From positions 97,526,001 through 97,590,000 of the forward strand of contig CM097886.1 of the NCBI GenBank assembly GCA_044892525.1: 64,000 nucleotides of DNA, in the 5' to 3' direction. Source of the DNA: Schmidtea polychroa. Its lineage: Eukaryota. Below the pieces are notes generated by a model that did not search any database, had not been told where the DNA came from, and saw nothing but the letters and a program-made list of their open reading frames with translations. Shown in pieces: positions 9,901 to 64,000 of the stretch (position 1 is the first letter of the stretch; every line of letters starts with the position of its first letter). A program made the translations under genes and the position numbers.

Positions 9901-12900
9901 ATAAGATTTCTTACTGTAATTGACAAAGAGCACCTGTTGATGACATTGCGGTACCCCTTATTCCAGGGCTATTGAATAAACCTATCAGAGGAATTTGTTC
10001 ATGTGATTGCTTGGAACAACCGAAATATTTGTTGTTATTTTTGGTTTTGAATTTGATCGTTTTACTTGGATCAAATATAACGTCGGCTAAAAATATATTT
10101 ATATTGAAAGTTGTAATATGTTGTCAAGATATATTTTATCATTTTGCTCCAAAGAAATTATTTTGAATGTATAAGAAATGCAAAGGGACATATGCAGTGG
10201 CGTAGTGAGGCAAAGTGCCGCCCTTGTCCATTTTTATTTGGTTACTTGAGTTTTTATTTTGAATTTTTGGCTGACTAATTTTGGGTTATTGTGCACATAA
10301 TATGCACTGTACAAACTGTACCAATAAATGCAATTTTATTGAAATCTGGATTTAATAAAAAAACATATAAAAAGGTGAATGTTATCCTTTAGACTACTTT
10401 AACTTAGCTTTTAACTTAGTCTTAAACTAGTACTAGGGACTAATAGGGAACCAGACTAGTAACAAATTAAAAAGTCCTAAACAATCTTATTTCACTGACT
10501 CTTACTAGAGTTCTCAGACTAGAATAAAAAGGCTAGTCGGTATCATAAATTTTTGTATGCATAATGCAGGATATGATGTATTGATACTTATTAGCCCAGC
10601 ATTTTTTGAAAGCAAAAGTTAAAACTAATAGTATAATTTTCATTAATGTAATTTAATTTAACATCATATCAACAGTCAAGTTATCGACTTAGGAACATCA
10701 AAATTTAAAATTGCACTTTTCTTGCTACCAATTAGAGTTTGCAAAAAAACCGGTTTTTGCAAACCGCGGTTTTCGGTTTTTCAAATTTGAGAAACCGCGG
10801 TTTTCGGTTCGGTTTTCGGTTTCTAAAAAAGTAAAAGGAAATAAAAAGGCATAAGTATATTTATTGCTTTTTCAATAATATATTTCTATTTAAAAGTATA
10901 ATGTATTTCATACAAGAAATATATATAATAAAATCATAGCTGCAACATATAAAATAGTAATAATGTTGTTTAATAAATAATATAACAATATTCCTATTCT
11001 GTCGACAATGCAGATATGAATTTCTAATTCACTTACATTGTTCACAGAGAATATAAAATAACACAGATAATTAATAGTATTTTGTTTATACATATACTAT
11101 AGTTCAGTAATATTAGTATATGTATGTAATCGTACATTTGTACAACTAATATAAATAAAAATTAAAATAAATAAAATAGAAAATTTCATTTAGCTGTTAT
11201 TGGTACCAATGCTTGGAAATCTGTAATAACTGTGTCGAAGTTAATCTTTTTGGACAACTGCCGTTCAATTGAAAGAATTGCTAAATTGGAAAATCGTGAT
11301 TCATTCATTGTAGATCTTAGATAGGTCTTGATCAATTTTAGTTTAGAAAAACATCTTTCACACCTAGCAACACTTATGCACATTGCTAAAAAAATTCGGA
11401 GTGCAATGACTAAGTTGAACAAAGATTAAGTGTATCCCCATTTGACAATCCACTGATGTAGTTCGATAACTCCTCAGTTGTTCACTTCCGTTGATATTAT
11501 TTCTTCATAACTGCTCAGACGTCTACGAAGAGATTGAACCTCATTTTTAAGATCTTGTGAAATAATTTCGTCATATACCATACACAGTGTATCAATTGCT
11601 TCATCAATACCCGTGTCATTTGCTGTATTTCTAAGAAATTCCACTTGTGGTAGAAATCCAAATTTAGTATTCATTCCCTTAATTTGTCGAAATCTCTGTT
11701 CAATTTCGGCAAACAATCGGTCAAGGATTTGTTTTTGTTCTCGGTTTATTTCATGTGCTTCCTCTCCCGGCATTCTTTTCTTTCAACACACACGTCTTTC
11801 AATTGTAATTTCGAAGAAAGCGTATTTATCTGTAGCATGAGCATTTTCAACTAAATTTTCTCTTTCTTTAACAACAAATTTAAGAAGGGATGCTATGTCA
11901 GTTGCACATTTATCTAAACCAAGACCCTTTCCTTTGTTTGAAATTTTTTTGAGTTTCAATTATTTCTTTTAGCAAGTGGCTCCAGAAATGCTAGTATGAA
12001 AAGAACGAATAAGACATCATATTAACAAGAAGATTTCCAGCATCACCTTTAGTTTCTGCAGTTTCAGAATCGCCGTCATGCAGCTCTTCCAGAGATTCAA
12101 CAAATCCTTTTGTATTTGAAGCTACTGCTTCATCTAAATCATGTTTGAAACTGCAACAAGTTTCACAAACTCGTTTGACAGTTTTCCTGACATGTGAAAT
12201 AACAATGGACCAGCTATGTGTTTACGCAGAAAAAAAGACATACAATTTTTCAATTGTTCCAAAAAATGTTACTGCATTAACTTTCACAGCACAATACACT
12301 CCTGCTAAATTTAAACTATGATTTGTACAAGGGTGGATATTTAAGATACGCTCTCCAACCCCAGTATGAATTCCAGCCATCGTCGCAGCATTGTCGTATC
12401 CTTAACTTCTAATGAGGTCGATCATTTTTGAGTTTTTCGATTATCTGCTCTGTTAGCACTGATGCAGTTTTACCATCAAGAGGGTAGAAATTTACAAACG
12501 ATTCTTTGACAACTACAGTTCCTTCACAAATATCGACATAACGAAGAACCTGAGACATCTGGTCAATATTGGATAGATCCGGCGTGCTATCGAAAATAAT
12601 TGTAAAATACTTTGATGGGTATGACACAGTTTTGTCCCACTCGCAACTTTTGTGATGTGTTCTCTTAAAACTGCATCATATTTCCCCGCGAGTTTCATTA
12701 ATTCAATAAAATTTCCAGAATTAATATCAGATTCTTCTAATAATTTCTCGCGATGTCCTCTAAGTGGGAGGTTTTATATGGATAAAAAGAAAATCCTATC
12801 CAAAGTTCGTTTTAAAATATCCCTCCATTAGGCGGCATTCTTAGCAATTTTCAGTTGAAGTTCACAATCAATCGTTAAGCTTGCTTCAAGGCGTATCTTT

Positions 12901-15900: not shown

Positions 15901-18900
15901 GGACGGTCATAAAGAGCAGGCACCAGGGGCAATACAAAGGAGGTAACGGGTATCAAGGAATGAGAGACGAGACAAGACAAGTAAACAAAAGATGAATGGC
16001 ATTCATAAATGAACAAGTTTATGAAAGAATATAAAATGTATATCGAGAATACCTCAAAGTTAACATCCTGATAGAAAAAGAGATAATAGAGTAAATTACA
16101 CTGACTTCCAAATTATCAAATATAGTAAAAGTAGAATGATCGATATTATAGATTAATATGTGAAGGATTCAGAGGTAACGGAATGTGGAAAGTAAACCGA
16201 TTCATAAGGAAGGATTTTGCAGAAAGAGAAAAAAATAGAAATATTCACATTAGATGAATGGGAAAATTACATTATCAGTTATGATAAAATTCAAGGCCAA
16301 CCCCTCATGACTACTAGAATCTAAGATCAAAAGAAGACAAATTTGGTCGATACAGGAGCTACAGTAAATGCCATGAGTTGGAGTCAATTCGAGAAACTAA
16401 AAGATAAAGAACTAATAATTTCAATGTGCACGTTGAGATATACCAATAATAGTGTTTTGGAAACGAAAGGAAAAACAATATTAAAACTGTAAATAAATGT
16501 CACGAAAGAAAGGCAATGTGTACGATGGTAAGATATATGACTCTAGAGGTAATTGGTGGTATAGAGTTGCAAAAACAAATTGGTATACAAACAAAGTGTC
16601 CAGTAAAAGATGATGATAACAATGCACGATCATTTTTGCAGTATCGAAATGAAATTTGGGAAGACAATAACAAGGATGGAACAGTTTGAAAGAGCAAAGA
16701 ATACCCTAAATATAGATTATCCAGTATTATTGGGCATTATACAGAAGAATCAAAATGTGTTTATGGCTGATAAATGAGGTATCGGTTGCACAAATCTGTT
16801 AAAGTATAGAATAGAAACTCAAGGAAAACCGATAAATATGGAATTAGTGAAACGGCAATTTATTAATATTCACATTGAAAACTTTTCAATGCTCTTTAAA
16901 TGAATTTACTGACAATCAAACAAAACTGATTATTTAATCAAAATTTAGTATCAGTTTAATGAAAATAAATGAAATATTAAAAGAAGTCAGATCAAAAATG
17001 AGCCAAAAGTTTTTATAATTAGTTATTTGTTTAATAATAACATTTAAAGAAGACATAGCTGAGAAAATTTGTATTAAATAAAAAGTCGAAAGTTAATCTA
17101 TTAATTGAAACTAAATGAAAATAAATGAAAACTCAAATGAGAAAAGGATAAATATTAATGATAATACCAAACAAAATATATTAACTTATAACTTTATACC
17201 TAGCATGTTTAAATACAAGACATTTACTTGTCCCCAAAAGTAGTTATCACTGATTGAACGAGGTCTTTTGCCGATATAACAACCGAAGTTGATCTTTTGT
17301 GAAGAAATAAAATGTTTCGTAGGTAAATGAACAGTGTTGTGATACCAATTTGGATTGTAACTTGCTTCGTCATAAATTGGTGACAAAGTATAATCATTGT
17401 TGCCTGTACAACATTAATTAAATATCATAATGAAAGGAAAATAAGATATTTAAAATTTTGACAATAAAAATAATTTATTTCTTATTCATTCATTTCCTTA
17501 GCAATTCATCAACTCTTATCAAATATCCCATCATATATACAACTAAGGGAAATACGAGTTTCTATGACACCTTATATAAGTTGATACTCCATGATTTATA
17601 ATTTTATCCGAAACGGTGGTTATGAAATCATCTCTAACGAAAGTACCGTAAATATAGGAAGCCCCTAATTTAACAAATATAAATGCTTATAAAAGACGTC
17701 CAAGTAGACAGATATAGGCACTCCAGAATAAATGGATATTACATAATAAAGACATAAGCATTTTTACATAATTAAAGAGTCTGACCATGTTTTGAGTGTA
17801 GCAATATATAGACAGAAATTAATTTACATATTATTCAAATCCTCAAACGAACATCAGATCACAACTGATTGGAGTTATACGAAATATAATTGAATCAATA
17901 ATTAGTCATTGATCTTGAATGACAAATTAATTGTTTATGATAAATTAACTTCGTCGGATACTGTTCCTATAAACGCAAAAACAAATATTAGAGATATTTA
18001 AACTCACAAGTTTTCAAACGAAATAAAAAATTATAGATACAAATAAATTTTTTTGAAAAATGTAAATTATTTAATTCTATGTTTACTTTTAATTATTAAA
18101 CACTATTATTATTAGAAACTATTAGATTTTGTTTATCTTGATTCATTTTTGGTACTAATCTCATTTATGATCACTATTCTACATATACATATTTCGATGT
18201 CTGTTGAAAACATTAATTTTTTCATCATGGTCATGACAAATAAAGGATTTAAAGGAAAAAAAAAGATTATTATCAGCAGTACATAATTTACATATTTAAA
18301 AAATGTTTAACACGAAGCATTTATACTCTGGCAGTAGAATAAGACAGCTTCCAGCTGAGTTTAGCCACGATGAGTGGAATATGGTGGCAAGAAATGAAGA
18401 TATTTGACAAACCACTATCAATATCAGTAAGTAACAACAGTCAGAGGCTCGAATTGCGGAGAATAACCCACTAGGTGTCCGACTTGAAGTTCATAACTGA
18501 ACTTGCAAAGAGCAATATTGAATGAATTCTAAAAATTCATTTTGAAAAACTCAAGTCTGTCTCTGCAAAATGTGTTTCCTATAACCGAACTAACAAACAA
18601 AAGTGAGCAAGAATTGAAAAATGCCGTATACTTTTAGAATGCTGTCAACATCGGATTACCAAGAAAATATATTCATAGCCGATGAGGAATGGATTTATTA
18701 CCGTTTCATTTCTGATTCACAACAGACAAGAACATGGCTCCTTTTTGATGGCCACATTTGTTTAGACTCATGATCTCCAAATGAAAAGTTAATATAATTT
18801 TTACGTCGAACTTTGTTAGTGAGTGTTACTTTGAGCTTCTACATGATGGTGATACTGTAATCTCGCAACAATACACCGATGTTATTGAAAATAAGCTGAC

Positions 18901-21900
18901 GGCACGGAACATTGATGCTATTCACAGACAGTTGATTTCTTGGTTGCATGACTCCACGTGCAACTATTGCCACTAGAGAATTATGATGAAACATCTTCAA
19001 GAACTTTGAATTCTTTAGAAAAGCAAATATTTAAAAAATATCAAATGAAATTGAATAATATCTTCAAGAGTTTAAAGCTCAATCGACTCCTGAGAAATTA
19101 ATAAAAGAGCTTAAAGAATCCGGGAAGCATTTTGAAGAAGTTATTAGAAAAAAAACGGAAATATATAAACATTTGTTTTCCCTTACTTATTGTTTATGGT
19201 AAATAAATGTTCACTGTAATAACCTGAAATTCTTTTTGTTAATCCCTGTATAAAAATAATTTTCAGAAGATTGCATATATAATAATATATTACGTAACAA
19301 ATATTCATAAAATATTGCCAAAATGACTAGCCTATGGTTCCGGTATAATACTGAATACTGGACATGCGTTTCATAATCGATGCCTCCTCCATAGGAACAT
19401 ATTTAAATCCAATATCATTCTTGCAAATCCTCACCATAAAGCTCTAACTATCAAATGAAAAACTCAACGGCTTTTTATATCCTACCTGCCAAGAGTTTCG
19501 ATCTTCTTGATTATTTAAGCCGTACTGATTGTTAATCTCATGACCGAAAAAATAAAGATGTTTCTCCGTTTCTCTAACGACATTGATGAAATTGATGTCA
19601 CCTAAGCCCGTTTTCAAGTCTTACCAATTAATAAAGTAGAAAGAATTACTCGACAAAACCCAAGCCATTGCTGAAGGAAGTGTAAATAAATTTCGAAATA
19701 TCCTCCAATCACTATACATCATTGTAGAATTGTTGTTCGGCATGTCTGGATTTAATTTATCAGGCTTGTAGAGTCCCCAACCGGAACCGATATATAGGTT
19801 ATCCAACTGGTCTCTGTATGACACCATCGGTTCATTGATATATCGTCCACAACTCATCATGTTTACATCGACAAATTTTATGAATTTCAATGAAGTCTTG
19901 TTCACGGAAAAAGCCTAAATATTTACCTTCATTATATTACTTCAAATATTACTTGAATTGCTTGCACAGATAAAAGAAAGCATCACATCAAGATAAAAAG
20001 TAAAGCAAGCAGCATTTGTGAAAGTTTTGCTTGAAGCATGAAATGAAGGTTAGCAGAAGAAAGTTTAAAGTAAACCTAAAAATTGCCGTTAAACAAAAGT
20101 GTTGAAGAAACAGATTTTTTTTTCTGTCTATATATTGCTACACTCAAAACATGGTCAGACTCTTTAATTATGTAAAACTGCTTATGTCTTTATTATGTAA
20201 TATCCATTTATTCGGGAGTGCCTATATCTGTCTACTTGGACGTCTTTTATAATGGCAAATAGATCAAAATGAGGGGGGGCCCGAATGACGCTTTTAAATT
20301 AAAATAATTAGATAAGTGCTTCAAAATGTGGAAAGAGATGAAAGAATCTCGATTTTGTATCGTGCATAGAAATTGAGCTATTCAATCAGTAATGTACAAA
20401 TGCGTTCCAAATATGACGCAGGAGAAACTCTTAGAGTAACAGTTTAACATTGCCAAATCATGATCAACTGGCTTTTTTATATCTCTTGAACGATTAAATT
20501 ATTATACAATTTTCTGTATGAATTTATTTATCGTTCTGGTAATGATAATTGAATTGTCAGATATCCTAATTTGACAGCTCCAGATCTCAAATGAAAAGCC
20601 TCAAAGTGTAATCTTAATAATTTCCCCAAATTTGTGAATGTTAGGGAAACAAAAAAAATTAATTTTATGATATTACGGTGCTTAAATGTTAAATAATGGA
20701 ATATTAACTAACTCTTGGAAACGAACCAAAGGTTCCACAGACCCACAAAGTTTCATTATCCAACGTTTCGATACCTTTGATGAAACTGTTCATACAAATG
20801 AAATCCATGGTTTCCCAGTCACCGCTTGGAGTATGATAATGCTTATGTTGGTAATCAAATGAATTGGTGCGGTAAGAATCATTTATACTGAACAATGATT
20901 CTTACATAAATTTGTGATATTAACAAATTGAAATTAAAATCACAAATCGCTATTTTGTCCGAAATTAAGGCTAAGTTAATTAAGATAAATAGATAAATTT
21001 ATGGCTCAAATTTTTAAATAAGTAAATTAAGTAATAAATTTTGAAAGATGATGAGAATTGGTAGTAATAATTAAAGTTAAAGTAAATAAGTAAAGAATGG
21101 GTTCAAATTTTCAATTAAATAAATTAAGTAATCAATGGTCTAGAACAGGATTTACCAAACCTTTTCAGCGACGGAACACTTGGAAAATCCGAAAATTTTG
21201 GCGGAACACTTAGCTTACTTTTTAGTTTGGGTAACACTCCAGAATTTATTTACTTATTCAATATTTAACACATACATACATATTTTCAAGCTTTTTTATT
21301 AGATTTATGAACGATTTTTATGTGTTAGCAAGACTTACCGTTTTATTTATCTTGGCAATTAGCGTTGACCACACGTTTGTCATAATTCATGTACATACCT
21401 GAGAATGGTGTAATGAGCGTCTTTGGGATGATTGCGGTTGGTTTGGTTAGCTATAAAGATGTTGCGGGTGGTGTGAGTTGTGACTCTGGACGGGATTGCG
21501 TGAAACTGGTTTCCGCGCGATGTGTAAACACGAAAAAGCGAACTGTCCTTTCGCGCACCGAAGATCATACTAACAAGACTTCAGCGAATCAGGGTAAAAC
21601 AATCCCATCTGCCACATCTCTTTCATGCGCACAGGAAGAGAGATAGTCTTTTTCCCTCATTAAAAAATATTGGCACTTGTGAAAGACTTTTATTGCTGTA
21701 CCCAACTTCTATGTACTAAAAATATTCGCCTGTTCTTGACGTCATAAAACTCAATGAAGTTTAACCGTCGCTCGTTTTTCATTATGAAGTAGAATATGTT
21801 CAATTTTCTCAATTTACTCCAAATTTTTACGAAATATCTATTTAGGCTCCGCGGAACATGGGGAACCTAGGTCTATAATTTTAAATAAGTAAATTAAAGT

Positions 21901-38932: not shown

Positions 38933-41900
38933 GCCCACCCCTGACATATAGCATTAATTTTGAAGGAATAGATTAATGACTGGAAATGTAAGTAAGTTAC
39001 CTTTATTTAGAATTTCTCTTTCTTTCCGTTTTTAGTTTAATAATAATATAAATAAGTTTTTGGTTACAACGGTTACTCGGTTCCAATGCTTTTATTTATA
39101 CACTTGCAATAAAGTTACTATCAGACAATATTTATATTGAGCACGCGAGCAATACCTCACAAATTTGCCCTGAATATGAGTCACAGACAATTGAACATGT
39201 ATTGGCTTCATTTGCTTCAGTTCACGGAAGATTGATTTAAGTTAATTCGGATTTTTTGTTAATAAAGAAAATTAAAGATAACTTATATTTAGTGGGCCTC
39301 TTAAATATGCTAATCTTTAATAATCTCTTCAATTTTCTAATAATAATTAGTCTAACGAAAGTCACATGTATTTAATAAAATGCATTTTTATTGGTTTTCC
39401 TTCAGTTTAGTTCATTATTTTTTTATTCATTTTGAATGTACCATTTTGTTCCGTCACTGAAAAATTTAGTTTAAACGAAAATAAAAGTCTGTTAGAGATT
39501 GTGAAAAACATTAAGTGTTTTCATGGCTAATAAATGGGATATTGAATCCACTGATTTGATTAAACATAAAGTTATCACAAAAGAAGGACAAATTATGAAA
39601 CAACCCAGAAGAGAGGCAATCAATATATAGGAATAAATACAGTATTTTGTGTACTCAATTTTTAATGATCTAAAATACCCCATCACTATAGTATTAATTT
39701 AATAGTGTTAATATATATCTCTGATTACATATAAATCTATCATTATCTTGCTTCAGAATCCCTGTTCATCCTCAAAAAATGCCAGACTATAGCGCAGAGG
39801 GTCACGTCCACGACATTTATGGTTTCACTCGCCTGGCTAATTCCCAACATCCTTTTTGATCTATTTATGTTCTATTGTCATTATTTTCACTTTTCAATTT
39901 TTGTACCAAAAATGTACCAATAATTTCATTCATGCCCCTCCATACCTTTGGTAGAAAGGAAACAATATTGGGATTTGATCTTGCCTTTCATGAACGTAAT
40001 TTTGCTTTTTATATATTTGTGTTGATGTTTCTTTGATTTAACTCAACACCAATTCCTCGAAACCTTTCTAATTAATTTTGACTTTAAATATAGGGTTTTC
40101 CGACCTATTTAGACACTTTAACGATCAAATTAGACATTTCAAAAAAGTGATATATATTTCACAATCAATTTAGACAATTTTCCAATCAATTTAGACAATC
40201 AATTAAAGAATACTTATTAAACAATCTAAAATATGTCTACATTCCCTCTGCATTTGATACTCATGAATAATAACGAAGAAACAGCGGTAAATGACGTAAA
40301 TGACCGGCACATAAACAATAACGTTATTGACACAAACGAGCCATCATCCCCGGGGGTGAATGCTGTGAGGGACGAATCAAATAATGCCTCTGTTGAATTG
40401 GAAACGACTATCAGTGTAGATTCGCGTGTAAAAAAGTATGATACAATTGACCAGCACGCAAGAGAGCGTGTGATTTCGCTTTATTCTCAGAACATTACGA
40501 TTTCCAGCATATCTGAAATGGTCGCAATTAAAAGAACAAGTGTATATAATATCGTAAAAAGGTGGGAATCTGAAGGAAGAATAACACCACTGAAAAGGGG
40601 CGGCGATAAAAGATCGAAATTGACGCCGAGTGAAAAACAAACTATTAAAGAATGGGTTGATGAAAACCCAATTCTGACACTGAAAAACTTGGTTGAGATG
40701 ACGATAAATAATATTGGGAAAAATGTATCTATCCACACCATTGATCGTTGTTTACGCAATTTCAATTATACTTTGAAATGCGTAAGACTTTCACCGGTTA
40801 AGAGAAATGATCCTACGACATTGGAGAAGAGACGTATCTACGCTGAGAGATTTTTAAGTATGCTTTTAAATAATGATGATAAAGCATTTGTATTTGTGGA
40901 TGAAGTTGGGTTCCAGGTTTGCACAAGAGTGAAACGGGGGAGGAGTTTAGTTGGTACAAGTGTCATTGTAAATACACCGGCGACAAGATCTCGCAACATT
41001 TCCGTTATTGCAGCAGTATCAAAGTATGGAACTCTAAAGTATGACATAAATCCAGGTCCTATAAACGGGGAGAAATTTTTGAGTTATATGGTAGAGTTAA
41101 ACAATTTATCGATAAACAAAAGAATTACAGATCCAATTTTTATCATCGACAACGCTCGTATACATCATTGTGCTCGTTTTATTTCCATATGTGAAGCTGA
41201 AAACATCAAAGTTGTATATCTACCCCCCCCCCCCCCCCCCTACTCTCCATTTCTTAACATTATTGAGAATTGTTTCAGTAAATGGAAGAATCATGTACTC
41301 AGAGGTAATGCAAACAACGAAAATGAATTAAATGATTTGATTATGGCAGGATTTGACATCCTAACAAGCGAAGATTGTGGAGGGTATTTCAGGAGAATGT
41401 TAACTTATATCGAAAGAAGTAGAAATATGGAATTGATATATGAATAAAAATGTTGTGGATTTGCCAAACTTATTCTTAATTTTATTGTCTAAATTGATTG
41501 GAAAATTGTCTAAATTGATTGTGAAATATATATCACTTTTTTGAAATGTCTAATTTGATCGTTAAAGTGTTTAAATAGGTCGGAAAACCCTATAAATGAT
41601 TTTTTTGACTTTTATATATATGTTACAGTTAAAGTATAAACTTAGACAATACATTAACTAATTAAAGTTTGTAGTAAAATTTTTAGACAATAATAAAATG
41701 TAAATGTATATGTAAAATGTATATGTAAATAAGCTTAATGATGTTTTGAATGCTCCCCAGTTTGTGAAAATAGAGATTTCTCGAAAAAATGGAATACAGC
41801 CTCCTCTTAAGGATGAAAATTTGTTGAAAGAAATACTGAATAAATTAATTAAAAATAAGCAAATTGATGAAGAGTTGTTTAAATCTATTCGCCCAATGGG

Positions 41901-44103
41901 ATCACAACCAGCAAAAATGTATGGGTTTCCAAAAATCCATGAAGATGGCGTGCCTATGAGACCTGTTTTATCCATGATTGGCACTGCCCAGTATAAAATA
42001 GCCAAATTTTTGGATGGATTATTGAAACCATTATTACGATCAGAATTTGAATGTAAAGATAGTTTTGAATTTGTTTCCTGCATTGCACAATATGATAGAC
42101 AAAGTATGGATGAAATTATGGTTTCGTTTGATGTTTGTAGTCTGTTTACTAATGTACCATTGGTTGAAACAATTGAATTATGTTGCTTGTTATGGAATGA
42201 AAATATTTCTGAACATCATATTTTGGATAGAACAGCATTTCGTGAACTTCTTGTATTTGCAACTTCAAAAATCAATTTTCTTTTCAATAATGAATGGTAT
42301 CAACAAATAGATGGAGTTGCTATGGGTTCTCCTTTAGCACCAACGATGGCTTCAATTTTTTTAACATGCTTAGAAAAGAAAATTGCATCTTTCCAAGGTA
42401 TTAAACCCACTGTTTATAAACGGTATGTGGATGATATTTTTCTTATATTTGAAAATCAAAGGCATGTTGACCCGTTTTTGCATTATATGAATAGTCTACA
42501 TAAAAACATTGTATTCACATGTGAAACGGAGAAAAAATCATCGCTTGCTTTCTTGGATCTGTTAATACAACGCAAAGAGAAACACTATGAGACAGAGATT
42601 TATAGAAAACCAACTGATACTGGTCTCTATACTTCTTCCGAAAGTTTTTGTGAATTCAAGTATAAAAGAAATATGGTGAAGGGGTTGATTTATCGTGCAT
42701 GGTCTTTGTCTTCTACTTTTAAAAATTCAGTAAAAAGTGTTGACATATTGGTTGAATTGTTAATGAAGAACGGTTATTCAAAATCCTTTTTAGTAATTAT
42801 GGAGAAAGAGACTGTTGACAAATTTATTAAAAATCCTAAGGATCCATGTTTGAGAAAATCTGGGTGTGATTTTGTTGAGATGTGTGAGTCTGATGAGTTA
42901 AAATCTGGGTGTGATTTTGTTGAGGTGTGTGAGTCTGATGAGTTAAATAAATTAAATAGTGTGAGCAAGGATGATGAGCCTAAATTTGTGTTAGTATTGC
43001 CGTACTCAGAAGGTTTTAAGGGTTATAAAGTGAAGATAAGAAAGCAGTTAGGGAATTTAAACTATAGAATAGTGTCAACTTCATGGAAAGAACGCAATAT
43101 GTTTATTAATAAGTCAAAAACTCCGGTCGAATTGTGTTCCGATCTCGTTTATCAGTTTACATGTAATGGGTGTAATGCCACATACATTGGAGAAACTTCC
43201 CGTCATCTCTGTATTTGAGCTCGAGAACATTGTAGACCGAAGGCTTTGACCAATATTGGTGAGCACAATAAGGGCTGTAAGATTAAAATAGGTATGTCTG
43301 ATTTTAAAATTTTATTAAAAAATTTCGATAATTATTGGGAACGTGTGATTTGTGAGGCGTTGTTGATAAAATCATTGAATACGAAAATTAATGTGCAGAA
43401 TGCAGTAAATACTTGTTTTTTGAGTGTTTTTAAATAAGTATTTAAATAGGTTTTTTTATATTGTACGTATTGATTGTTGTATTAAATTAAATAATTAATA
43501 AAAATTTTTAAATTATTAAATTAAATTTTAAATGCTAAAATTTTAAAAAAAATAATATATTAATTTAAGTATAATTTTTTTAAAAATAATTAAATGTTTT
43601 TATAAAATAAAAAATTTTTATATATAATTAATAAATTTCTTTAAAATCCTTAATCTAATGAGTTATTATATCCCACCTGATGATGAAAAGAAAACTGTCG
43701 AAATATATCGTGAAAAGAATGTTTGATTGGCGTTATCTTATAATTAAATCATTGCCATGTATGTTTAACTATTTATTCAATAATAAAATAATAATAAAAT
43801 GTATATTATATCTAGGTAGTATGCTGAATTGCAACATGTCAAACTAGAATAACATTTATGTATTTTATTAGAGAATGTATACATTGTCTAAGTTTATACT
43901 TTAACTGTAACATATATAATAAATTTATAATAGATGTCATTCATTTACAAAATAAATAAAATCAAACTTTCTCTATAAGTAAAATATCTGGGATTTGTGA
44001 TGGAAGTGAGGTGTGATCTATTTTCATTCGGCACATATTTGAACCCCGGATCAGATTTGCAGATCCTCAACATAAAGCTCTAATAAAGAGATTAATACAA
44101 GTA

Positions 44104-52110: not shown

Positions 52111-52952
52111 AATAATAAAATGAAAAGACTTAATTAATTATAAACTCATAGAGGTCAAATTATGCCCATACATCATGGTTAGAATATCGTCCGAAAATCC
52201 CCTAAGTCAACCATAAAATAGAGGTTCATATCGTAGAATATGATTTTTTGTCTGGGAGGAATAGTTCATAAATGTCTAATGATATTAAATTATGAAATAC
52301 GACCTTATAGTACCCTTAGAATACCAGTCTGTGAATGTGTGATATACCTAAATTAGACGATATAACTTTGAATTATACGTAAAACTATAATTTCTCAATG
52401 TATAATATCCCCAACTCATAAAATATAACGTAGTATTGTGCTTAAATATGCCTTAAATATGCCTAAACTATATAACTTAATTCATAAATGTGTAATCTTC
52501 CTGAATTATCAAATATAAATTTTTTTTAAAAAAGTGTACTTAAAATCGTAATTTATAAATATTAAATTAGAAAATATAACTTTATATTATACTTAAAAAT
52601 ATAATTTATAAATTCGTAATATTCCTAAAGTATAGGAAATAATTGTATAAGTAGTGTGGTTATATACCCAACCAAAACAGCCCCCCAACAAAAACATGCC
52701 TCCAAATCACTTAAGCTATTAGAAAAACAACCTAAAACTTATACTTTTATAGTATTTTAACCCTATATTTTGAAAACAACCACCCTTAATGACTCTAACT
52801 GTTTTAATCTTTAAAGCCTCAAACTCAAAAGCTTCAAACTAAAAAGAGAATAGAAAAGAAAATGGCATTATGAAAAAGTTAGAGGGCTATTTGATCTTTA
52901 TCAGATTATTGATTTTAAATTATATAAATTAAAAAATAAATGAAAAATAGTA

Positions 52953-53340
52953 AAACTGCTCTGAGGGGACAGTGGTATTTTTTTTTTTCACTGTCCCCTC
53001 AACAGTTTTTTTTGATCCGGATCATTTTTTTTATTTATTAACCTCTTTCGTTTATCGAATCTCTTCCAATATACAAGCTGGCCAGACTCATACATCAGAA
53101 TCAATCCGATAATAGCAGCACACCTTATTATTCGCTTCTCGCTCGAATACGATTTCATCGGCGTTTTAAGTGTGCTGCTCGAAAGTACAAATGAATTCGA
53201 AAGCGAATTCGAAAGAGGTCCGAAAACAGCTGAGAAATAAATGTGCACATTACCGGGATCGATCCGGGGGTGTTCGAAAGACAGGTGGCGATAATTACCG
53301 GTTCGCCACCATCACCCGTTTCAATATTTTTTTTTTCATA
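52953..53340. other. Cluster of GC-rich hairpins/palindromes in the Polinton left non-coding arm
   Basis: tgaggggacagtg/cactgtcccctca (13-bp stem); tgatccggatca palindrome; agcagcacac/gtgtgctgct; ggtggcga/tcgccacc; repeated (T)CGAAA; T-run at ~53328. Confidence 0.7.
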
Positions 53341-53481
53341 TTTATGTTTAAAAAATAATTAATTAATAAAAAAATAAAATAAATAAAATAAATAAAATAA
53401 AATATACAAGTACTTTATAAATATAAGATACCCACACTATTTTCAATATTATTTTCAAATTTTTAATATTATTTTATGTTG

Positions 53482-53563
53482 AAAAAAAACTAACCTCAGA
53501 TGTGATTTGAACCACTATCCATTTGAACCACTGTGCCAGTCTAGCCCACTGCGCTATCTAGGA
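53482..53563 (-). ncRNA. tRNA-derived Pol III unit (A box, duplicated B box, oligo-T terminator); not a functional tRNA
   Basis: Minus strand TCCTAGA-TAGCGCAGTGG-GCTAGACTGGCAC-AGTGGTTCAAAT-GGAT-AGTGGTTCAAAT-CACA-TCTGAGG-TTAG-TTTTTTTT; acceptor-like stem TCCTAGA/TCTGAGG; no anticodon stem. Confidence 0.6.
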
Positions 53564-53629
53564 TTGGATTTTTGTCATTTTTTAAATTTTTATTATAAAA
53601 AATGAATAATATAAATCTTAAAAAATAAA

Positions 53630-56600
53630 ATGAAAACAGGATATCCAATAAAAAATTTTTTTCTAAAAATGAATTGTAATATTTGCAATAAAGTTTTTAA
53701 AAATAAAACTGGATTAATTTCTCACTTAAAATCGAAAGCTCATTTATTAAAAGAAAATAATCTTAATGATACAAATTCAAAACTTTGTCTTAAATGTAAA
53801 GGAAGATTTCTACATTCTGGATATAATAAACATTTTGAAAATTGTATCGGGAAAAATAGAGAAATATTTACATGTCCTCATTGTAACTTTTCAACAAAAC
53901 TAAATTTCTATTATTTAGAACATATAAAAGAATGTAAAAATAAAAAACAAAATTCTGACGATGAGGAATGTCATTCAGAAGGAGAACCTGATCATGTTGA
54001 AAGAGAAAAATATAACTGGGATAATTTTAATCATATAGATGAATTTCAATTAAAAATTAATGGGCCTGCAACTCCTGGAGAATATATAAATAAAAATAAA
54101 AAAAATATTAAAAATTCTTTCACTGAAGCTTTAAAAAATTATAAACCGACAAGGTATAATGTTATAAAATATAAAATTATAATCAAAGCAAAATACTGGC
54201 GAGGAGCAGAAGAAAAGACAACACCCTTAGATGTTGAAATTGGAATACCTTTTAAATATTTATTTTCAATTAAAGGATTTGATAAAACCATCAAAGAAAT
54301 AATTAAAGCAGCAGAAGCAAAACAAGAGGAAGTAGAAAATGAATTAGGAGATTCAAACTTAGTATTCAACTCTTTCCAAACGTTAGTGATTGATTATTGG
54401 AGAGGATTACCACCCAATCCTAAATCTTATATTCCTACACCCTTTACATCTAAAAATGTTATAAATGTACAGAATAATGATAACAAATGTTTCATCTGGT
54501 CAATACTTGCACATTTACATCCTCAAGCAACAAATCCCCAAAGAGTTTCAAAATACAAACAATATGAAAATGAATTAATATTTCCCAAAGGATTCAAACA
54601 CCCAATGAAACTAGAAGACATTCCAGAATTTGAAAAATTAAATAATCTTAAACTTAATTTTTATGAACATGTTATAGGGAAAGAAATTATTCCAATTTAT
54701 ATTTCAGATAGTGGAACCAAGGATAACGGAGCACAGGACAACGAGATATATCTTTTAATCTTGGAACAAGAAAATAATCAACATTATGTTTTAATAAAAA
54801 ACTTTCAAGCTTTTACATCTCCAGAGAATCCAACTAGTGGAGGAGGAACATGTAAAAGATGTCTTCATTATTCAACAACTAAAACCTCTATGATTAAACA
54901 TACAAGATTTTGTGAAAAAGATGATCCAGCTTTAATTAAAATGCCTAATAATCCCAAGATGTATTTTAAAAACTTTTCAAATTTACTACAAACAGTTGGA
55001 GTTCTTTATGGTGACTTTGAATCTATAAACCATAAACAAGATTTGGTTTATCAATATTTAAAAATAATAGAAAAAAATAAACTCATGGATTTATGGAACT
55101 CCTCAGGAGAGAAGATGAAACCAGAGAGGATGAAAGCCTTTCTAAGAAAAAGAAATAAACCTAATAGTGTTAAAAAAACTAAACAATTACCATCTGCTTA
55201 TAAAATATTATTTAAAAGTAATTATCCTGAACTCATAGAATCTAGAGAATATTCAATTCTAGGAGGTACCCCTGAAGAAGTCTTGAATCATTTTACTAAA
55301 AATATAAATGATCTAGAACATGAAATATTTAAAATATTAAAAACAAAGTATCCTCAAAATATTTCTAATCAACAACAACAAGAATATGAAAATACTTCCA
55401 ACTGTTGGATGTGTAAACAGAATATTCTTCCTGATGAAAAAGTTATAGATCATGATCATTTAAAAAAGGAAAATAATTATCGAGGAGCAGCTCATAAAAA
55501 TTGCAATCTTAATTGCCATACTCCTAAATTTATACCTGTTATATTTCATAATCTTTTTGGATATGACATACATCTATTTATTAAACACCTCGCAGCAAAT
55601 GCTAAAAACTCTTTCAAAGTTATCGGCTTAACAAAGGAAAAATATAAATCAATTGAATATGGAAAATTAAAATTTATAGACTCGTTAAACTTTCTCCAAA
55701 TGTCTTTAGATGCAGTAGCAAAAACAATGAAACCAGAAAATTTTAAAATCACTCGAGAATTCTTGGAAAAAAATAATATTCCTCTAGAAGAATATCCTAC
55801 ATGTTTAGCAAAAGGAATATATCCTTATGACTATGTTGACTCGTTTGAAAGATATAATGAAACAAGTCTTCCTAGCCAAGAAGATTTCTATTCACAACTT
55901 CAAAAAAATCATATTACAAATCAAGAATATTCTCGAGCAAATAAAATGTGGGAATTATTCAAGTGTAAAACTTTAGGAGAATATACAAGTATGTATTTAT
56001 CCTTGGATGTTTATATTCTAGCAGATTGCTTTGAAGAATTTACAAAATCTTTTGTTCTTAAACCTTATAATTATATAACTGCACCCTCTTTAGCTTGGGA
56101 TACTATGTTATATACCATTTGGACTTCAAATATAGAAGAAGGTGATAAAATTATAGATCTTTTAACTAACCTCGATATGTTTAACCAAATTAAAACAAAC
56201 ATTAGAGGAGGAGTCTCTTCAGTAATGGGGAATAGAGAAATAAAAGCTAGAAATGCAATAACTACTAGCCGAAGACTATCTAAACACCCTGATGATCCAT
56301 ATATGAAAATTAACAATGAGGAATTAAAAGAATTATTAGAAACAATGAAAAATCCTATATTTATACTTTATATAGATGCAACAGCTTTATATTCAGGAAT
56401 TATGACTCAATTTTTACCAATGGGTGATTTCACTGAAATAGAGAACCCAACAGATGACCTTATGAAAGAAATACTTTCAACATCGAAAGATTCTCCAATA
56501 GGTTACTTTATAGAATGCGACCTCGACTATCCAGATGATATAAAATCAGGAACAAGATATTTTCCTTTAGCTCCCATAAGAAGAAAGATTGATATCAACG

Positions 56601-57949
56601 AACTTTCTGAATGGCAAATCTCACAAGATAAACCTCCAACAATGAAACTTCTTTGTGATCAAACAGATCGAAGGTTTTATCTTTGTCACTATAGACTCCT
56701 CCAATTTTATCTTTCACGAGGAATGATATTAAAAAAAGTTCATAGTGTCATAAGATTTAAACAAGCTCCATTCATGAAAGCTTTTATCGAGGAGAACATT
56801 AGGTGCCGAAACATTGCAAAAAGAGAAGGTAATCTTTTTAAAGATAATAATTATAAAATTTTAAACAATTCAGTCTTTGGGAAAACAATGGAGAATGTTG
56901 ATAAATATACTCATATTGAACTCCTAACAAATACTACCAAAGATATTAAGCGTTATAATCGCATGCTAGGAAAGCCTACATTTAAAAACGCACAAGTATT
57001 TTCTGAAAATCTTACTGCAGTAGAATTAAAAAATTATGAGAAAACATATAACAAACCAATATTTATAGGGTTTACAATTTTAGAACTTTCAAAATTACAA
57101 ATGTATGAAACATATTATAACATCTTACAACCTATATACGGAGCAAATATATCAATGCATGCAATGGATACAGATTCAATGTTTTTAACAATAAGAACTC
57201 ATGATTTACAAAAAGATATGAAAGAAAATCCTATACTTTCAAATTTAATAAATTCATCTGGAGAACTATTTTCGTTTAAAGATGAAAAACCTTTTACTCC
57301 TATAGAAAATGGAATATTTATTCGTGCTAAACAATATTCATACGAAACATTTAGAAACCCTGAATTTATAACTAGATCATTTATATTTAAAACTCCAGAA
57401 ACAGAAGAAACCATTACACATAGATATCCTATATTTCCTAAAGAAGAAAAACCTGTAAAGGATAACAGATGTAAAGGAATACAGAGAGTGGTGGCAAAGA
57501 ATCTTTCTCATCAAGATTATATAGATACATTGAATCCAAATCATAAAGATAAAATTGATGAAATACATCAACTTAAAAGTGAAAACCATGATATTCACTT
57601 GATAGAATCTCAAAAAGTATCATTATCAAATTATGATGATAAGAGATTCATACTAAGTGATTTAAAGACAACTCTACCTATTGGAAATAATTTAATCCCT
57701 ATAATAAAAAATCTAGAAAAGTTGAATAAGTTATATGATACAAAGATTACTGATCTTGATATTTATAATGTTGAAATTATTTATCCCGAGAGAGAAATCG
57801 AGAAACCTTTATATTCTCAAGTTTTTAATCCTATATGTTTAGAACTTAAATATTTTAATACTGATCCTGAATATATAAAAGGTCTAAGTGATAAAGAATT
57901 TAAAGATCATAAATTAATGATTCATAGGTTGGCTTTCAACCATAACTGA
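53630..57949 (+). CDS. polB: Protein-primed family B DNA polymerase (pPolB), 1439 aa, with N-terminal zinc fingers and an endonuclease VII-like insert
   Basis: Exo YGDFES, FHNLFGYD, YLSLDV; Pol YIDATALYSGIM, KILNNSVFGK, AMDTDS; NNDNKCFIWSILA; CWMC..DHDH..RGAAHKNCNL; DDKR. Confidence 0.97.
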   Translation: MKTGYPIKNFFLKMNCNICNKVFKNKTGLISHLKSKAHLLKENNLNDTNSKLCLKCKGRFLHSGYNKHFENCIGKNREIFTCPHCNFSTKLNFYYLEHIKECKNKKQNSDDEECHSEGEPDHVEREKYNWDNFNHIDEFQLKINGPATPGEYINKNKKNIKNSFTEALKNYKPTRYNVIKYKIIIKAKYWRGAEEKTTPLDVEIGIPFKYLFSIKGFDKTIKEIIKAAEAKQEEVENELGDSNLVFNSFQTLVIDYWRGLPPNPKSYIPTPFTSKNVINVQNNDNKCFIWSILAHLHPQATNPQRVSKYKQYENELIFPKGFKHPMKLEDIPEFEKLNNLKLNFYEHVIGKEIIPIYISDSGTKDNGAQDNEIYLLILEQENNQHYVLIKNFQAFTSPENPTSGGGTCKRCLHYSTTKTSMIKHTRFCEKDDPALIKMPNNPKMYFKNFSNLLQTVGVLYGDFESINHKQDLVYQYLKIIEKNKLMDLWNSSGEKMKPERMKAFLRKRNKPNSVKKTKQLPSAYKILFKSNYPELIESREYSILGGTPEEVLNHFTKNINDLEHEIFKILKTKYPQNISNQQQQEYENTSNCWMCKQNILPDEKVIDHDHLKKENNYRGAAHKNCNLNCHTPKFIPVIFHNLFGYDIHLFIKHLAANAKNSFKVIGLTKEKYKSIEYGKLKFIDSLNFLQMSLDAVAKTMKPENFKITREFLEKNNIPLEEYPTCLAKGIYPYDYVDSFERYNETSLPSQEDFYSQLQKNHITNQEYSRANKMWELFKCKTLGEYTSMYLSLDVYILADCFEEFTKSFVLKPYNYITAPSLAWDTMLYTIWTSNIEEGDKIIDLLTNLDMFNQIKTNIRGGVSSVMGNREIKARNAITTSRRLSKHPDDPYMKINNEELKELLETMKNPIFILYIDATALYSGIMTQFLPMGDFTEIENPTDDLMKEILSTSKDSPIGYFIECDLDYPDDIKSGTRYFPLAPIRRKIDINELSEWQISQDKPPTMKLLCDQTDRRFYLCHYRLLQFYLSRGMILKKVHSVIRFKQAPFMKAFIEENIRCRNIAKREGNLFKDNNYKILNNSVFGKTMENVDKYTHIELLTNTTKDIKRYNRMLGKPTFKNAQVFSENLTAVELKNYEKTYNKPIFIGFTILELSKLQMYETYYNILQPIYGANISMHAMDTDSMFLTIRTHDLQKDMKENPILSNLINSSGELFSFKDEKPFTPIENGIFIRAKQYSYETFRNPEFITRSFIFKTPETEETITHRYPIFPKEEKPVKDNRCKGIQRVVAKNLSHQDYIDTLNPNHKDKIDEIHQLKSENHDIHLIESQKVSLSNYDDKRFILSDLKTTLPIGNNLIPIIKNLEKLNKLYDTKITDLDIYNVEIIYPEREIEKPLYSQVFNPICLELKYFNTDPEYIKGLSDKEFKDHKLMIHRLAFNHN

Positions 57950-60501: not shown

Positions 60502-60966
60502 TTATAGTAGAGATTCTAGATCATTATAAATTTCTTGAATTATAGATTCAAAATCCTGCGTATGCCCCTTTCCCTCTCCCTTATTCAATCTATACAAAAC
60601 ATATAAACTTAAAATACCACATATTTTAGTATTCAAAGGTTGAACTTGTAAAGAGTTAAAAGTATAACCATTTGGGGAATCAATCGGAGAACCTCTCAAG
60701 AGATAATCTTCAACTTCTTTAGTAGGTTTAATCCCAAAAGAATCAAAGTAGATAGATTTCTTATATATACAAACCCAATGAGATCCTTTTTCATTTGAAT
60801 TTTGATAATTGATTATTATATTCAGGGGACTCTCCAGACTTGATAATTCATCATTCATTAATATTTTAATTTTTAAATTTAAATAATTTGCATAATCTTT
60901 TAAATCAAAATTTGTTTTTGCATTTATTCCAAATGTTTTTAAAAAATCTAATATTGAAGGAGTCAT
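60502..60966 (-). CDS. Adenain-like cysteine (maturation) protease
   Basis: GSHWVCIY..YFDSFG..QVQPLNTKICG catalytic H/D/Q/C arrangement. Confidence 0.92.
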   Translation of the reverse strand: MTPSILDFLKTFGINAKTNFDLKDYANYLNLKIKILMNDELSSLESPLNIIINYQNSNEKGSHWVCIYKKSIYFDSFGIKPTKEVEDYLLRGSPIDSPNGYTFNSLQVQPLNTKICGILSLYVLYRLNKGEGKGHTQDFESIIQEIYNDLESLL

Positions 60967-62502: not shown

Positions 62503-63294
62503 ATGGATATTTGGAAACCAATTTTAAATAGACATAAGAGTAAATTTAATAATAAAGTATTTCCTGATAATTTTAGATTATTAATTGTTGGTTCTTCTGG
62601 ATGTGGAAAGAATGTACTTGTTTTGAGAATGTTACTTGAAGATGATTTTTTAGATTATAATAATTTAATCTTTTATTCTACAACCATAAATCAACCAGAA
62701 TTACAACTTTTGAAATGTGGATTTGAAAATAAATTAACTAAAAAAACAATAATTGATATTTTTAAAAATCAACATAGGTGTCCTGAAGAAGTTTTTCAAC
62801 CTTGTGATATGGTTGATTGGTATAAGGAAAAGATTTTAGAATCAGATATTAGTAATAAAAATGATTATATTTGTGAAGAAGGGCAGGAGGCAATTCAAGT
62901 TTTATTCTCTAATAAACCTGAAGATGTTTTACATTGTGATTTACTTCCTAAAGATAAAAAGAATCTAGTTATATTTGATGATGTTGTTAATATGAAAAAT
63001 CAAGAGATTCAAAAGAGTTATTTTACACGAGGTCGACATAATAATTGTAATGTTATTTATATATCTCAAACATATTATGCTTTAGATAAAAATTCAATAA
63101 GAAATAATTCTAATTGTTTTATATTTTTTAAATTAGATCGCCGTGATAAGAATATGATTTATAATGATTTATTTTCAAATGTTGAACCTGATAAGAATAT
63201 GTTTGATATGTTTGTTGATAATCATTGGAAAGAAAAATATAATTATATTTATTTGGATAGAGAAGAAGCTGAAATATGGAAAAGTTTGTTTTAG
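62503..63294 (+). CDS. A32/FtsK-like genome packaging ATPase
   Basis: Walker A GSSGCGKN (N at the usual S/T), Walker B LVIFDD, RGRH..VIYISQ. Confidence 0.93.
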   Translation: MDIWKPILNRHKSKFNNKVFPDNFRLLIVGSSGCGKNVLVLRMLLEDDFLDYNNLIFYSTTINQPELQLLKCGFENKLTKKTIIDIFKNQHRCPEEVFQPCDMVDWYKEKILESDISNKNDYICEEGQEAIQVLFSNKPEDVLHCDLLPKDKKNLVIFDDVVNMKNQEIQKSYFTRGRHNNCNVIYISQTYYALDKNSIRNNSNCFIFFKLDRRDKNMIYNDLFSNVEPDKNMFDMFVDNHWKEKYNYIYLDREEAEIWKSLF

Positions 63295-63305: not shown

Positions 63306-64000
63306 TTAAAAATCTGTTTTCTGTAGTTCATTATTATAAAATCTACCTAATATTTTTTCATTATTTAAATCAAAGATGCTATATGTTATTGGAGTTGTAT
63401 AATTTATTTTATTTATAATAAAAATTTCATTTGTCCATTTTGCTGTGAATCCTTTTTCAAATTTATTTTTATATTTAAATATTCTTACTCGGTCACCAAT
63501 TTTAAACTTTGGTTTTTCAATAACATCATTTTCAATATTTACCACTTTAATGGTTTCAGGCTTCATGGAAGCATTTAAAGGTGTTAATTTTATAGAACTA
63601 TGTACATCATTATTATATTCATTTACAATCTTTTGTAACAATTCATTGTTCCATTTTTGTTTTCCAATAGCAGTAAAATATTTCCACATTTTATTTTTTA
63701 ATGTTCTATTTAATCTTTCAACTACAACTGCTTTTCCTTCGTTTTCTGTTGAATATAATTTAATATCATTTTCATTTAAAAACTTTGTAAAAACTTTGTT
63801 ATAAAATTCTGTTCCTTTATCACACCATAAATATTTTGGGATTCTTTGATTTTCTTCAAATATATTTTCAAATGCTTCTGTAATAGAATATCCTGTTTTA
63901 TTTTCTAAACACCTTGCAAAAGCAAATCTTGTATATAAATCTATTACAGTTAAAATTATTTTATATTTTTCAGGGTCTGATGATTTGGGCATAAAGACTA
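63306..64000 (-). CDS. Retroviral-like (rve) integrase, N-terminus beyond the window edge
   Basis: LTVIDLYTRFA, LWCDKGTEF, VVERLNRTLK; Polinton-type C-terminus KFKIGDRVRI..WT.EIF..GRFY..ELQK. Confidence 0.95.
   Translation of the reverse strand, partial: VFMPKSSDPEKYKIILTVIDLYTRFAFARCLENKTGYSITEAFENIFEENQRIPKYLWCDKGTEFYNKVFTKFLNENDIKLYSTENEGKAVVVERLNRTLKNKMWKYFTAIGKQKWNNELLQKIVNEYNNDVHSSIKLTPLNASMKPETIKVVNIENDVIEKPKFKIGDRVRIFKYKNKFEKGFTAKWTNEIFIINKINYTTPITYSIFDLNNEKILGRFYNNELQKTDF

Follow-up and report, generated by a model that had tools for sequence, protein, structure and literature searches.

Adenoviruses, which are relatives of Polintons (PMC6431247), make highly structured VA RNAs of ~160 nt that target PKR, Dicer and Exportin-5 (PMC4378190, PMC5415849). 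Like the units described below, VA RNA I and II and the EBERs of EBV are described in these sources as combining an internal A + B promoter with an oligo-T end in a DNA virus-like genome. A tRNA-type promoter before a hairpin RNA, again as here, is reported for the TMERs of MHV68 and for the miRNA precursors of BLV and foamy viruses (PMC8223928, PMC4378190), and the foamy-virus Pol III units lie in terminal repeats (LTRs) (PMC4378190), as the present ones lie in terminal inverted repeats (TIRs). A further likeness is to tDNA and ETC boundaries, i.e., A + B or B-box TFIIIC sites located by Pol II promoters, which serve as barriers, insulators and roadblocks and in which the promoter is kept and the RNA is dispensable (PMC4228148); these are described on host chromosomes, whereas the candidate sites reported here are cargo at both ends of a mobile element. 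Pol III RNA genes of adeno-, herpes- and retroviruses, as well as tRNA genes of polinton-like and MELD viruses, are on record. The tRNA-derived genes reported from polinton-like viruses, virophages and MELD viruses (PMC12220804, PMC8502044) were called by Rfam or ARAGORN and read as translation aids, whereas neither tool detects three of the units found here (U1, U3 and U4). The literature searched, namely the article texts of openly accessible journals, gave no account that places Pol III or VA-like RNA genes in the TIRs of a Polinton.

Long TIRs starting with AGT and a 6-bp target-site duplication are the hallmark of Polinton/Maverick elements. The window, i.e., the whole 64,000-nt stretch of Schmidtea polychroa DNA that was analysed, contains the left part of a complete Polinton of 15,093 bp, which runs from position 52650 to L031:3742 (the prefix L031 marks coordinates in the stretch that holds the right end). 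Its termini are AGTAGT, its TIRs are 935 bp long (left copy at 52650..53584, starting with AGTAGT; the inverted copy ends at L031:3742), and the 6-bp target-site duplication TGTATA (52644..52649, + strand) recurs as six identical bases after the right end. The outermost part of the TIR is a terminal module (52650..52892, inner limit approximate) that varies among subfamilies with a common inner cassette. An ORF for protein-primed polB (53630..57949, +; PF03175, E = 2e-12) and one for a 469-aa rve integrase (63306..64000, −, its start lying beyond the window; PF00665, E = 2e-9), together with an A32-like packaging ATPase (62503..63294, +; PF04665) and a double-jelly-roll capsid gene (L031:745-2037; PF21738, E = 7e-27), identify the element as a Polinton. 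For the adenovirus-like cysteine protease, a 154-aa ORF (60502-60966) was picked as a candidate by eye and has no significant Pfam or PDB match. The N-terminus of polB carries C2H2 zinc fingers (53630-53950).

The genome is AT-rich, totals 781 Mb and includes four very large contigs. The host DNA that flanks the element is inverted-similar on the two sides over about 100 bp (52548-52649 and the right flank in L031), so that insertion into a palindromic AT-rich repeat is possible. Elsewhere in the window, a Tc1/mariner-type transposon was observed at 40089-41594, in which 124-bp inverted repeats (97%) flank an intact 404-aa DDE transposase ORF, and a reverse transcriptase ORF of 440 aa (41896-43218) is enclosed by 48-bp inverted repeats (41603-41650 and 43883-43930).

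Each TIR has at its inner end a degenerate tRNA-type Pol III unit that faces outward (U1; 53482..53563, −); the A box of the right copy is at L031:2821 (+). The reference for its boxes was the type-2 consensus TRGYnnAnnnG and GWTCRAnnC (PMC4333407, which also describes the Alu promoter layout). The A box TAGCGCAGTGG (53546..53556, −; common variant TGGCGCAGTGG, within the consensus) and a run of eight T's, the predicted Pol III terminator (53482..53489, −), were both found where the sequence-only reading had put them, and its tRNA spacing was confirmed: between tRNA positions T8 and G53 of the B box GGTTCAAATC (53504..53513, −) there are 44 nt, the same as in host tRNA-Cys. In 100 shuffles, A + B + T4 matches occurred at 0.01 per window. 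The two tandem B-box copies of that reading are present as B-like sequences, AGTGGTTCAAAT occurring twice on the − strand (53532-53521 and 53516-53505), but the first (53521..53532, −) is without C61 and the number of such copies is variable (two in 114, one in five and three in one of 120 contexts). Scores for a parent tRNA were similar against host Cys and Lys (z 3.6-4.3; three host tRNA types compared).

The same reading had placed the unit head-to-head with polB. This holds for the left copy, in which 66 nt separate 53563 from the polB ATG at 53630, but the unit occurs in both TIRs, at each end head-to-head with the outermost gene, and the start codon common to the copies is at 53669. Of 31 copies, 16 have the ATG at 53630 in frame and two have it out of frame, 13 being without it; the common start lies 105-118 nt from the U1 A box in 29 of the 31.

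U1 is a property of a large family. Its 20-mer has 1,111 exact matches in the genome and its A + B pattern 2,988 matches, the first 100 of which listed are all U1-type; the ends that carry it have one to three tandem copies in blocks of ~212-233 bp. When 20 ends were chosen by the terminal 20-mer, a U1 variant was present at 19, and the remaining one was a lone 249-bp terminal module. These samples were the first listed matches on contig C1 or the best-scoring matches, and are not random. The expectation that the unit recurs at the same place in other copies is borne out in the sampled copies of this family, which has ~3,000 matches, but does not extend to four full-length sister elements, all of which are without it in their TIRs. 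In agreement with the prediction that it is not a dispersed host SINE, all 20 unpaired U1 matches examined lie in TIR context.

Conservation was assessed in 130 contexts that were anchored on flanking DNA and not on the boxes. An A box and a B box (with C61) of the consensus type at tRNA spacing, followed by a T-run, are intact in 122 of these, and a box is damaged or deleted in the other eight; a run of at least five T's is present in 130/130. Commonly polymorphic columns make up 1 of 21 in the boxes versus 23 of 49 outside them (Fisher p = 7e-4, a value that overstates certainty because the copies are young and related and the columns are not independent events). The single polymorphic box column is in the A box, and the change stays within the consensus. 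The spacing between A and B boxes is 43-45 nt in 115/120 contexts.

The RNA encoded by U1 has no comparable constancy of shape. ARAGORN calls no tRNA, no RF00005 match was obtained, and Rfam reports nothing over U1 at E ≤ 10, as expected by the sequence-only reading, which had foreseen a low or pseudogene-like tRNA score. The T-stem has at most two of five pairs in 138/138 contexts. Fold z-scores range from +0.79 to −0.32 in four copies, and average 0.09 over 78 variants, none of which reaches z < −2. The acceptor-like terminal stem that had been proposed is not conserved: the 7 nt 5' of the A box exist in 15 versions among 120 contexts, and at least four of the expected terminal pairs are formed in only 30 of 78 variants, although a bulged terminal stem is possible in some. 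The 3' segment of U1 swaps between unrelated blocks (120 contexts). Hence the earlier view that decoding was lost but the promoter and terminator for Pol III were retained is supported, the box columns being spared and the tRNA fold gone: U1 preserves the signals in its DNA but not the shape of its RNA.

About 250 bp farther out in the TIR than U1 there is a second unit with its own A + B boxes, U4, which is predicted to encode a Pol III RNA of ~380 nt (52943..53322, −, both ends inferred) with a tRNA-type head, a multi-helix body, A-runs, a 3' hairpin and T-runs. The A box TGGCGAACCGG (53298..53308, −) fits TRGYnnAnnnG and the B box GGATCGATCCC (53255..53265, −) fits GWTCRAnnC, with 44 nt between T8 and G53. 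An internal T4 (53223..53226, −), present in 60/60 aligned copies at 82 nt after the A box, is a possible early terminator; human Pol III can terminate at a run of four T's (PMC4333407). Among host genes, those for tRNA-Lys and tRNA-Arg have T6-T7 terminators and those for tRNA-Cys only T4 runs. The structured body (53041..53219, −) is closed by a 10-bp stem and includes a 25-pair G.U-rich hairpin (53052-53112). It is followed by AATAAA and an A8 run (53025..53039, −), variable among copies, and by the 3' hairpin with its T-runs (52931..53006, −), namely T4 (52955-52952), T5 (52947-52943) and T6 (52936-52931). In 87/99 contexts, at least five T's in a row are first met 310-389 nt away from the A box.

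Folding of the outer TIR domain is strand-specific (z = −6.55 outward versus −2.44 inward), and the full U4 RNA, from 53322 to ~52943, gave z = −9.05. The outward strand was more stable than the inward one in 10/10 sampled copies (of 96). The alignment comprised 60 of 65 distinct copies; those omitted were three partner TIRs, a second copy from one locus, and L028, which is the most diverged, and matches shorter than 250 nt were dropped. All 60 copies have an intact A box and a spacing of 43-45 nt, and in 59 the B box with C61 is intact as well. Pairing is kept in 99% of cells over 61 named pairs, with 14 pairs varying on one side and one on both, so that support from covariation is thin, as the copies are close and a single one of them served for drawing the structure; the count of G.U versus A.C (12:3) is biased in the same manner. 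A VA-like fold, i.e., long, strand-specific conserved pairing, is accordingly present in U4 as a predicted RNA. Searches of the TIR against Rfam supported no known ribozyme, snRNA or miRNA family for U4, and the VA model was not among the 16 matches at E ≤ 10. Read-through from U1 can be rejected as the origin of U4, as the eight-T run lies between them and U4 has boxes of its own.

No more than a lead comes from four contig sets whose RNA origin is a guess, in which the summed contig depth over 52600-54400 was highest at 53027-53270 in three sets; contig depth, here read without a DNA-run control, does not rank parts or show strand or ends. In set X1 the depth was 17,000-21,000 at 53027-53148 versus 1,000-2,000 over U1, and in X2 4,300-10,100 versus ~430. 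It falls beyond the A-run at 53025, and three X1 contigs have loose poly-T ends. Pre-rRNA does not account for the peak, as the rDNA units tested contain nothing that matches this part of the TIR. We consider it slightly more likely than not that a long Pol III RNA is made from U4.

Compared with VA RNAs and EBERs, the predicted U4 RNA is likewise a long molecule with a strong fold, in which a stem closes the structure and one hairpin is of pre-miRNA size, but it differs in its ~380 nt, in its internal A-runs and T4, in its location in TIRs (two per genome) and in the absence of an Rfam match. U1 resembles these RNAs in neither respect, being short and unfolded. TMERs are described as keeping the tRNA fold for RNase Z cleavage (PMC8223928), which U1 lacks, and the head of U4 is a simple hairpin. 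U4 is thus the better VA/EBER-like candidate, although its internal T4 may shorten the predicted RNA.

tRNA-derived SINEs consist of an A + B head, a body, an A-rich tail and a T-run. The layout of U4 is SINE-like in each of these parts; unlike SINEs, however, neither unit has free-standing copies, since 0/20 orphan U1 and 0/20 orphan U4 matches lay outside TIR sequence, all 20 U4 orphans being within it (sampled among the first 100 listed, on contig C1).

The stretch that separates the capsid gene from the right TIR holds two further outward A + B units, U3 (A box at L031:2101) and U2 (A box at L031:2336). U2 is of Cys type (z = 9.0 against host tRNA-Cys; 26.7-32.4 bits with the Rfam tRNA model, cut-off 29). 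In total, the element has six outward A + B units, all non-coding and at its ends, compared with 0.15 in shuffles. The 480-bp piece with U3 and U2 (L031:2049-2527) is 92-95% identical to a segment of the host rDNA spacer in 6/6 rDNA stretches. That spacer harbors four to five degenerate tRNA-like A + B + T units in tandem, antisense to the rRNA genes and ~3-4 kb before 18S (L317:8420-9460, on contig C115 of the S. polychroa assembly, and five other rDNA stretches). Capture by the element appears likelier than the reverse, because the spacer array is longer and occurs in every rDNA stretch tested, while many elements are without the piece. U1 and U4 gave no BLAST match in the spacer array. Since U3 and U2 come from the rDNA-spacer piece, fold-less A + B units would have been acquired by this lineage at least twice (U1; U3/U2).

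Host tRNA genes themselves occur in long single-type tandem arrays in the assembly (C1:269.25 Mb, C4:76.66 Mb, C140, C333 and C474), and the Cys-type tRNA pattern has 992 genome matches. Next to the right U1, an 83-aa ORF without Pfam match (L031:2568-2819, +) is arranged head-to-head with the capsid gene, and its stop abuts the A box; a 74-aa relative lies 50 nt from the capsid ATG in locus L185.

Four full-length sister elements in the same genome have the same gene order, with polB 57-64% and capsid 91-93% identical and with TIRs of 265-328 bp. All negative A + B scans were made with a relaxed pattern, since the strict one misses U4. With this pattern, no A + B unit was found in the TIRs of the four sisters, each of which has one chance match in coding DNA. 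The cassette is thus, as far as these comparisons go, lineage-specific, because the four sisters are without all of its units. For the same reason the units are evidently dispensable for replication or gene expression. The sisters may be older, because their ORFs are broken in places. Over the sister stretches L281-L292, the capsid protein is 91-95% identical to that of the element and polB only 57-64%, a discrepancy that suggests gene exchange between Polinton lineages. Sister TIRs (L281-L284, L289-L292 and L078) are short, their outer ~230 bp are bounded by inverted AGTAGT, and such modules also occur alone, like miniature elements. Among 117 contexts of the U4 + U1 cassette, the three commonest outer modules account for 43, 19 and 9, and there are single cases with termini of the cassette-less type. 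Because it is found on several outer modules, the cassette reads as an add-on that has moved between ends.

A second polB family in the same genome (L258-L276) comprises 19 decayed loci of ~25% identity to the present polB in which no ends were found, several of them forming inverted pairs 3-9 kb apart; none of the 19 has a unit. Homologues of the capsid elsewhere show 73-74% and about 50% identity. Scans of viral contigs and a first metagenome scan detected nothing, and a second metagenome scan (38 loci, 125,554 bases) revealed no tRNA-like A + B unit, a result of little weight because almost all of these loci are without element ends. No Rfam match was obtained in the 20 metagenome loci scanned.

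Three roles can be set aside for U1 at once: it is not a working tRNA in view of ARAGORN, Rfam and the broken T-stem, not a host SINE in view of its 20 sampled orphan matches, all in TIR sequence, and not a Pol III promoter of polB in view of a T7 just inside the ORF. What fits best is the second option of the sequence-only reading, a TFIIIC-bound boundary or promoter element. Retention of the boxes and T-run with loss of the fold argues against a VA-like U1 RNA and for a TFIIIC site in cis. Judged from sequence, the chances seem to us about even that U1 is a cis-acting TFIIIC/TFIIIB site which shields the inward polB and capsid promoters, its short RNA being a likely by-product. TFIIIC would bind the U1 B box and place TFIIIB in the AT-rich gap toward the polB ATG. 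The bound complex, which would keep the inward polymerase and capsid promoters open, could phase nucleosomes, act as a heterochromatin barrier, and serve as a roadblock to Pol II from either side; all three activities are reported for yeast tDNAs (PMC4228148). Also in favor of this role are the six outward units at the ends of the element and the uptake of fold-less A + B units at least twice. On the capsid side, 50 of 68 contexts have a unit no more than 100 nt from the ATG (U1 in 15 and U3 in 35), and in 18 the nearest unit is farther away or absent. Schmidtea Polintons are described as PIWI and H3K9me3 targets that SMEDWI-2 represses at the chromatin level (PMC8532177), which provides a possible purpose for U1 or U4. 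Against the cis-acting site count the sisters without units in their TIRs, these 18 capsid contexts and the eight contexts with a damaged or deleted box; moreover, a barrier would presumably be powerless against piRNA-guided silencing of the element's own transcripts.

U1 could instead serve U4, as a tandem upstream unit that raises local TFIIIC and Pol III and whose eight-T run, with TFIIIB, insulates U4 from outgoing transcripts. The two units lie on the same strand with U1 at most 450 nt upstream in 97/99 contexts, their genome counts match (2,988 for U1, 2,742 for the U4 A box and 2,822 for the U4 body), and the pair occurs next to a variety of outer terminal modules, two types of which are known from cassette-less relatives. 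Physical linkage alone would explain this co-occurrence, however, and it is left unexplained why rDNA-spacer units lie at a distance from U4, only 66 nt before the capsid ATG. We regard such a helper function as unlikely. It is likewise improbable that U1 is a neutral passenger, i.e., an old tRNA-like capture kept uniform by copying between the two TIRs together with recent amplification of the family. Its absence from the sisters and the existence of box-deleted copies agree with this possibility, as does a weak likeness to the rDNA-spacer units (score 70 versus a shuffle mean of 50; sd 6.4, max 68, n = 200). On the other hand, substitutions fall outside the boxes, while the boxes, their spacing and the T-run persist, and neutral homogenisation would not spare boxes.

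Least probable, and in our opinion hardly to be expected, is that a U1 RNA of ~75-85 nt acts in trans in the manner of adenovirus VA RNA or of the tRNA-like RNAs of herpesviruses and sequesters La, Exportin-5, Dicer or PIWI proteins: most copies do have a full promoter with a T7-T9 terminator, giving ~3,000 templates, some variants can form the bulged terminal stem, and the tRNA-like part of MHV68 TMERs is reported to work via host proteins (PMC8223928), but neither stable folding nor terminal pairing nor the T-stem is kept, the 3' segment is exchanged among unrelated blocks, the length is half that of a VA RNA, and Rfam gives no match. The proposal that U1 itself is a VA-RNA analogue is therefore not supported, since a product of this size without a stable or shared fold contrasts with the ~160-nt structured VA RNAs. 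If any part of the TIR is VA RNA-like, the predicted structures point to U4 rather than U1.

Taken as a whole, the lineage might have expanded by means of a portable Pol III cassette that combines a ~380-nt VA/EBER-like decoy for the small-RNA silencing machinery of the host with fold-less tRNA promoters, in part from the host rDNA spacer, which wall off its own promoters against heterochromatin; we offer this only as a speculative and rather doubtful scenario. Polintons have been described by their proteins, and the question addressed by such a cassette is how they stay active under piRNA silencing. The cassette copies, which number ~2,700-3,000 and would correspond very roughly to 1,400 two-ended elements, constitute a built-in comparison with the cassette-less sisters beside them, and the case bears on whether tDNA-type boundaries travel as cargo. 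Of interest in their own right are the tRNA-like units arrayed in the spacer of the host rDNA and their probable capture by the element. As units of this kind evade tRNA finders, they may have been overlooked in other Polintons. If the scenario is true, the cassette would be the first case of a Polinton that counters silencing with a non-coding RNA system, and a counterpart, whether convergent or ancestral, of the VA RNA of adenoviruses.
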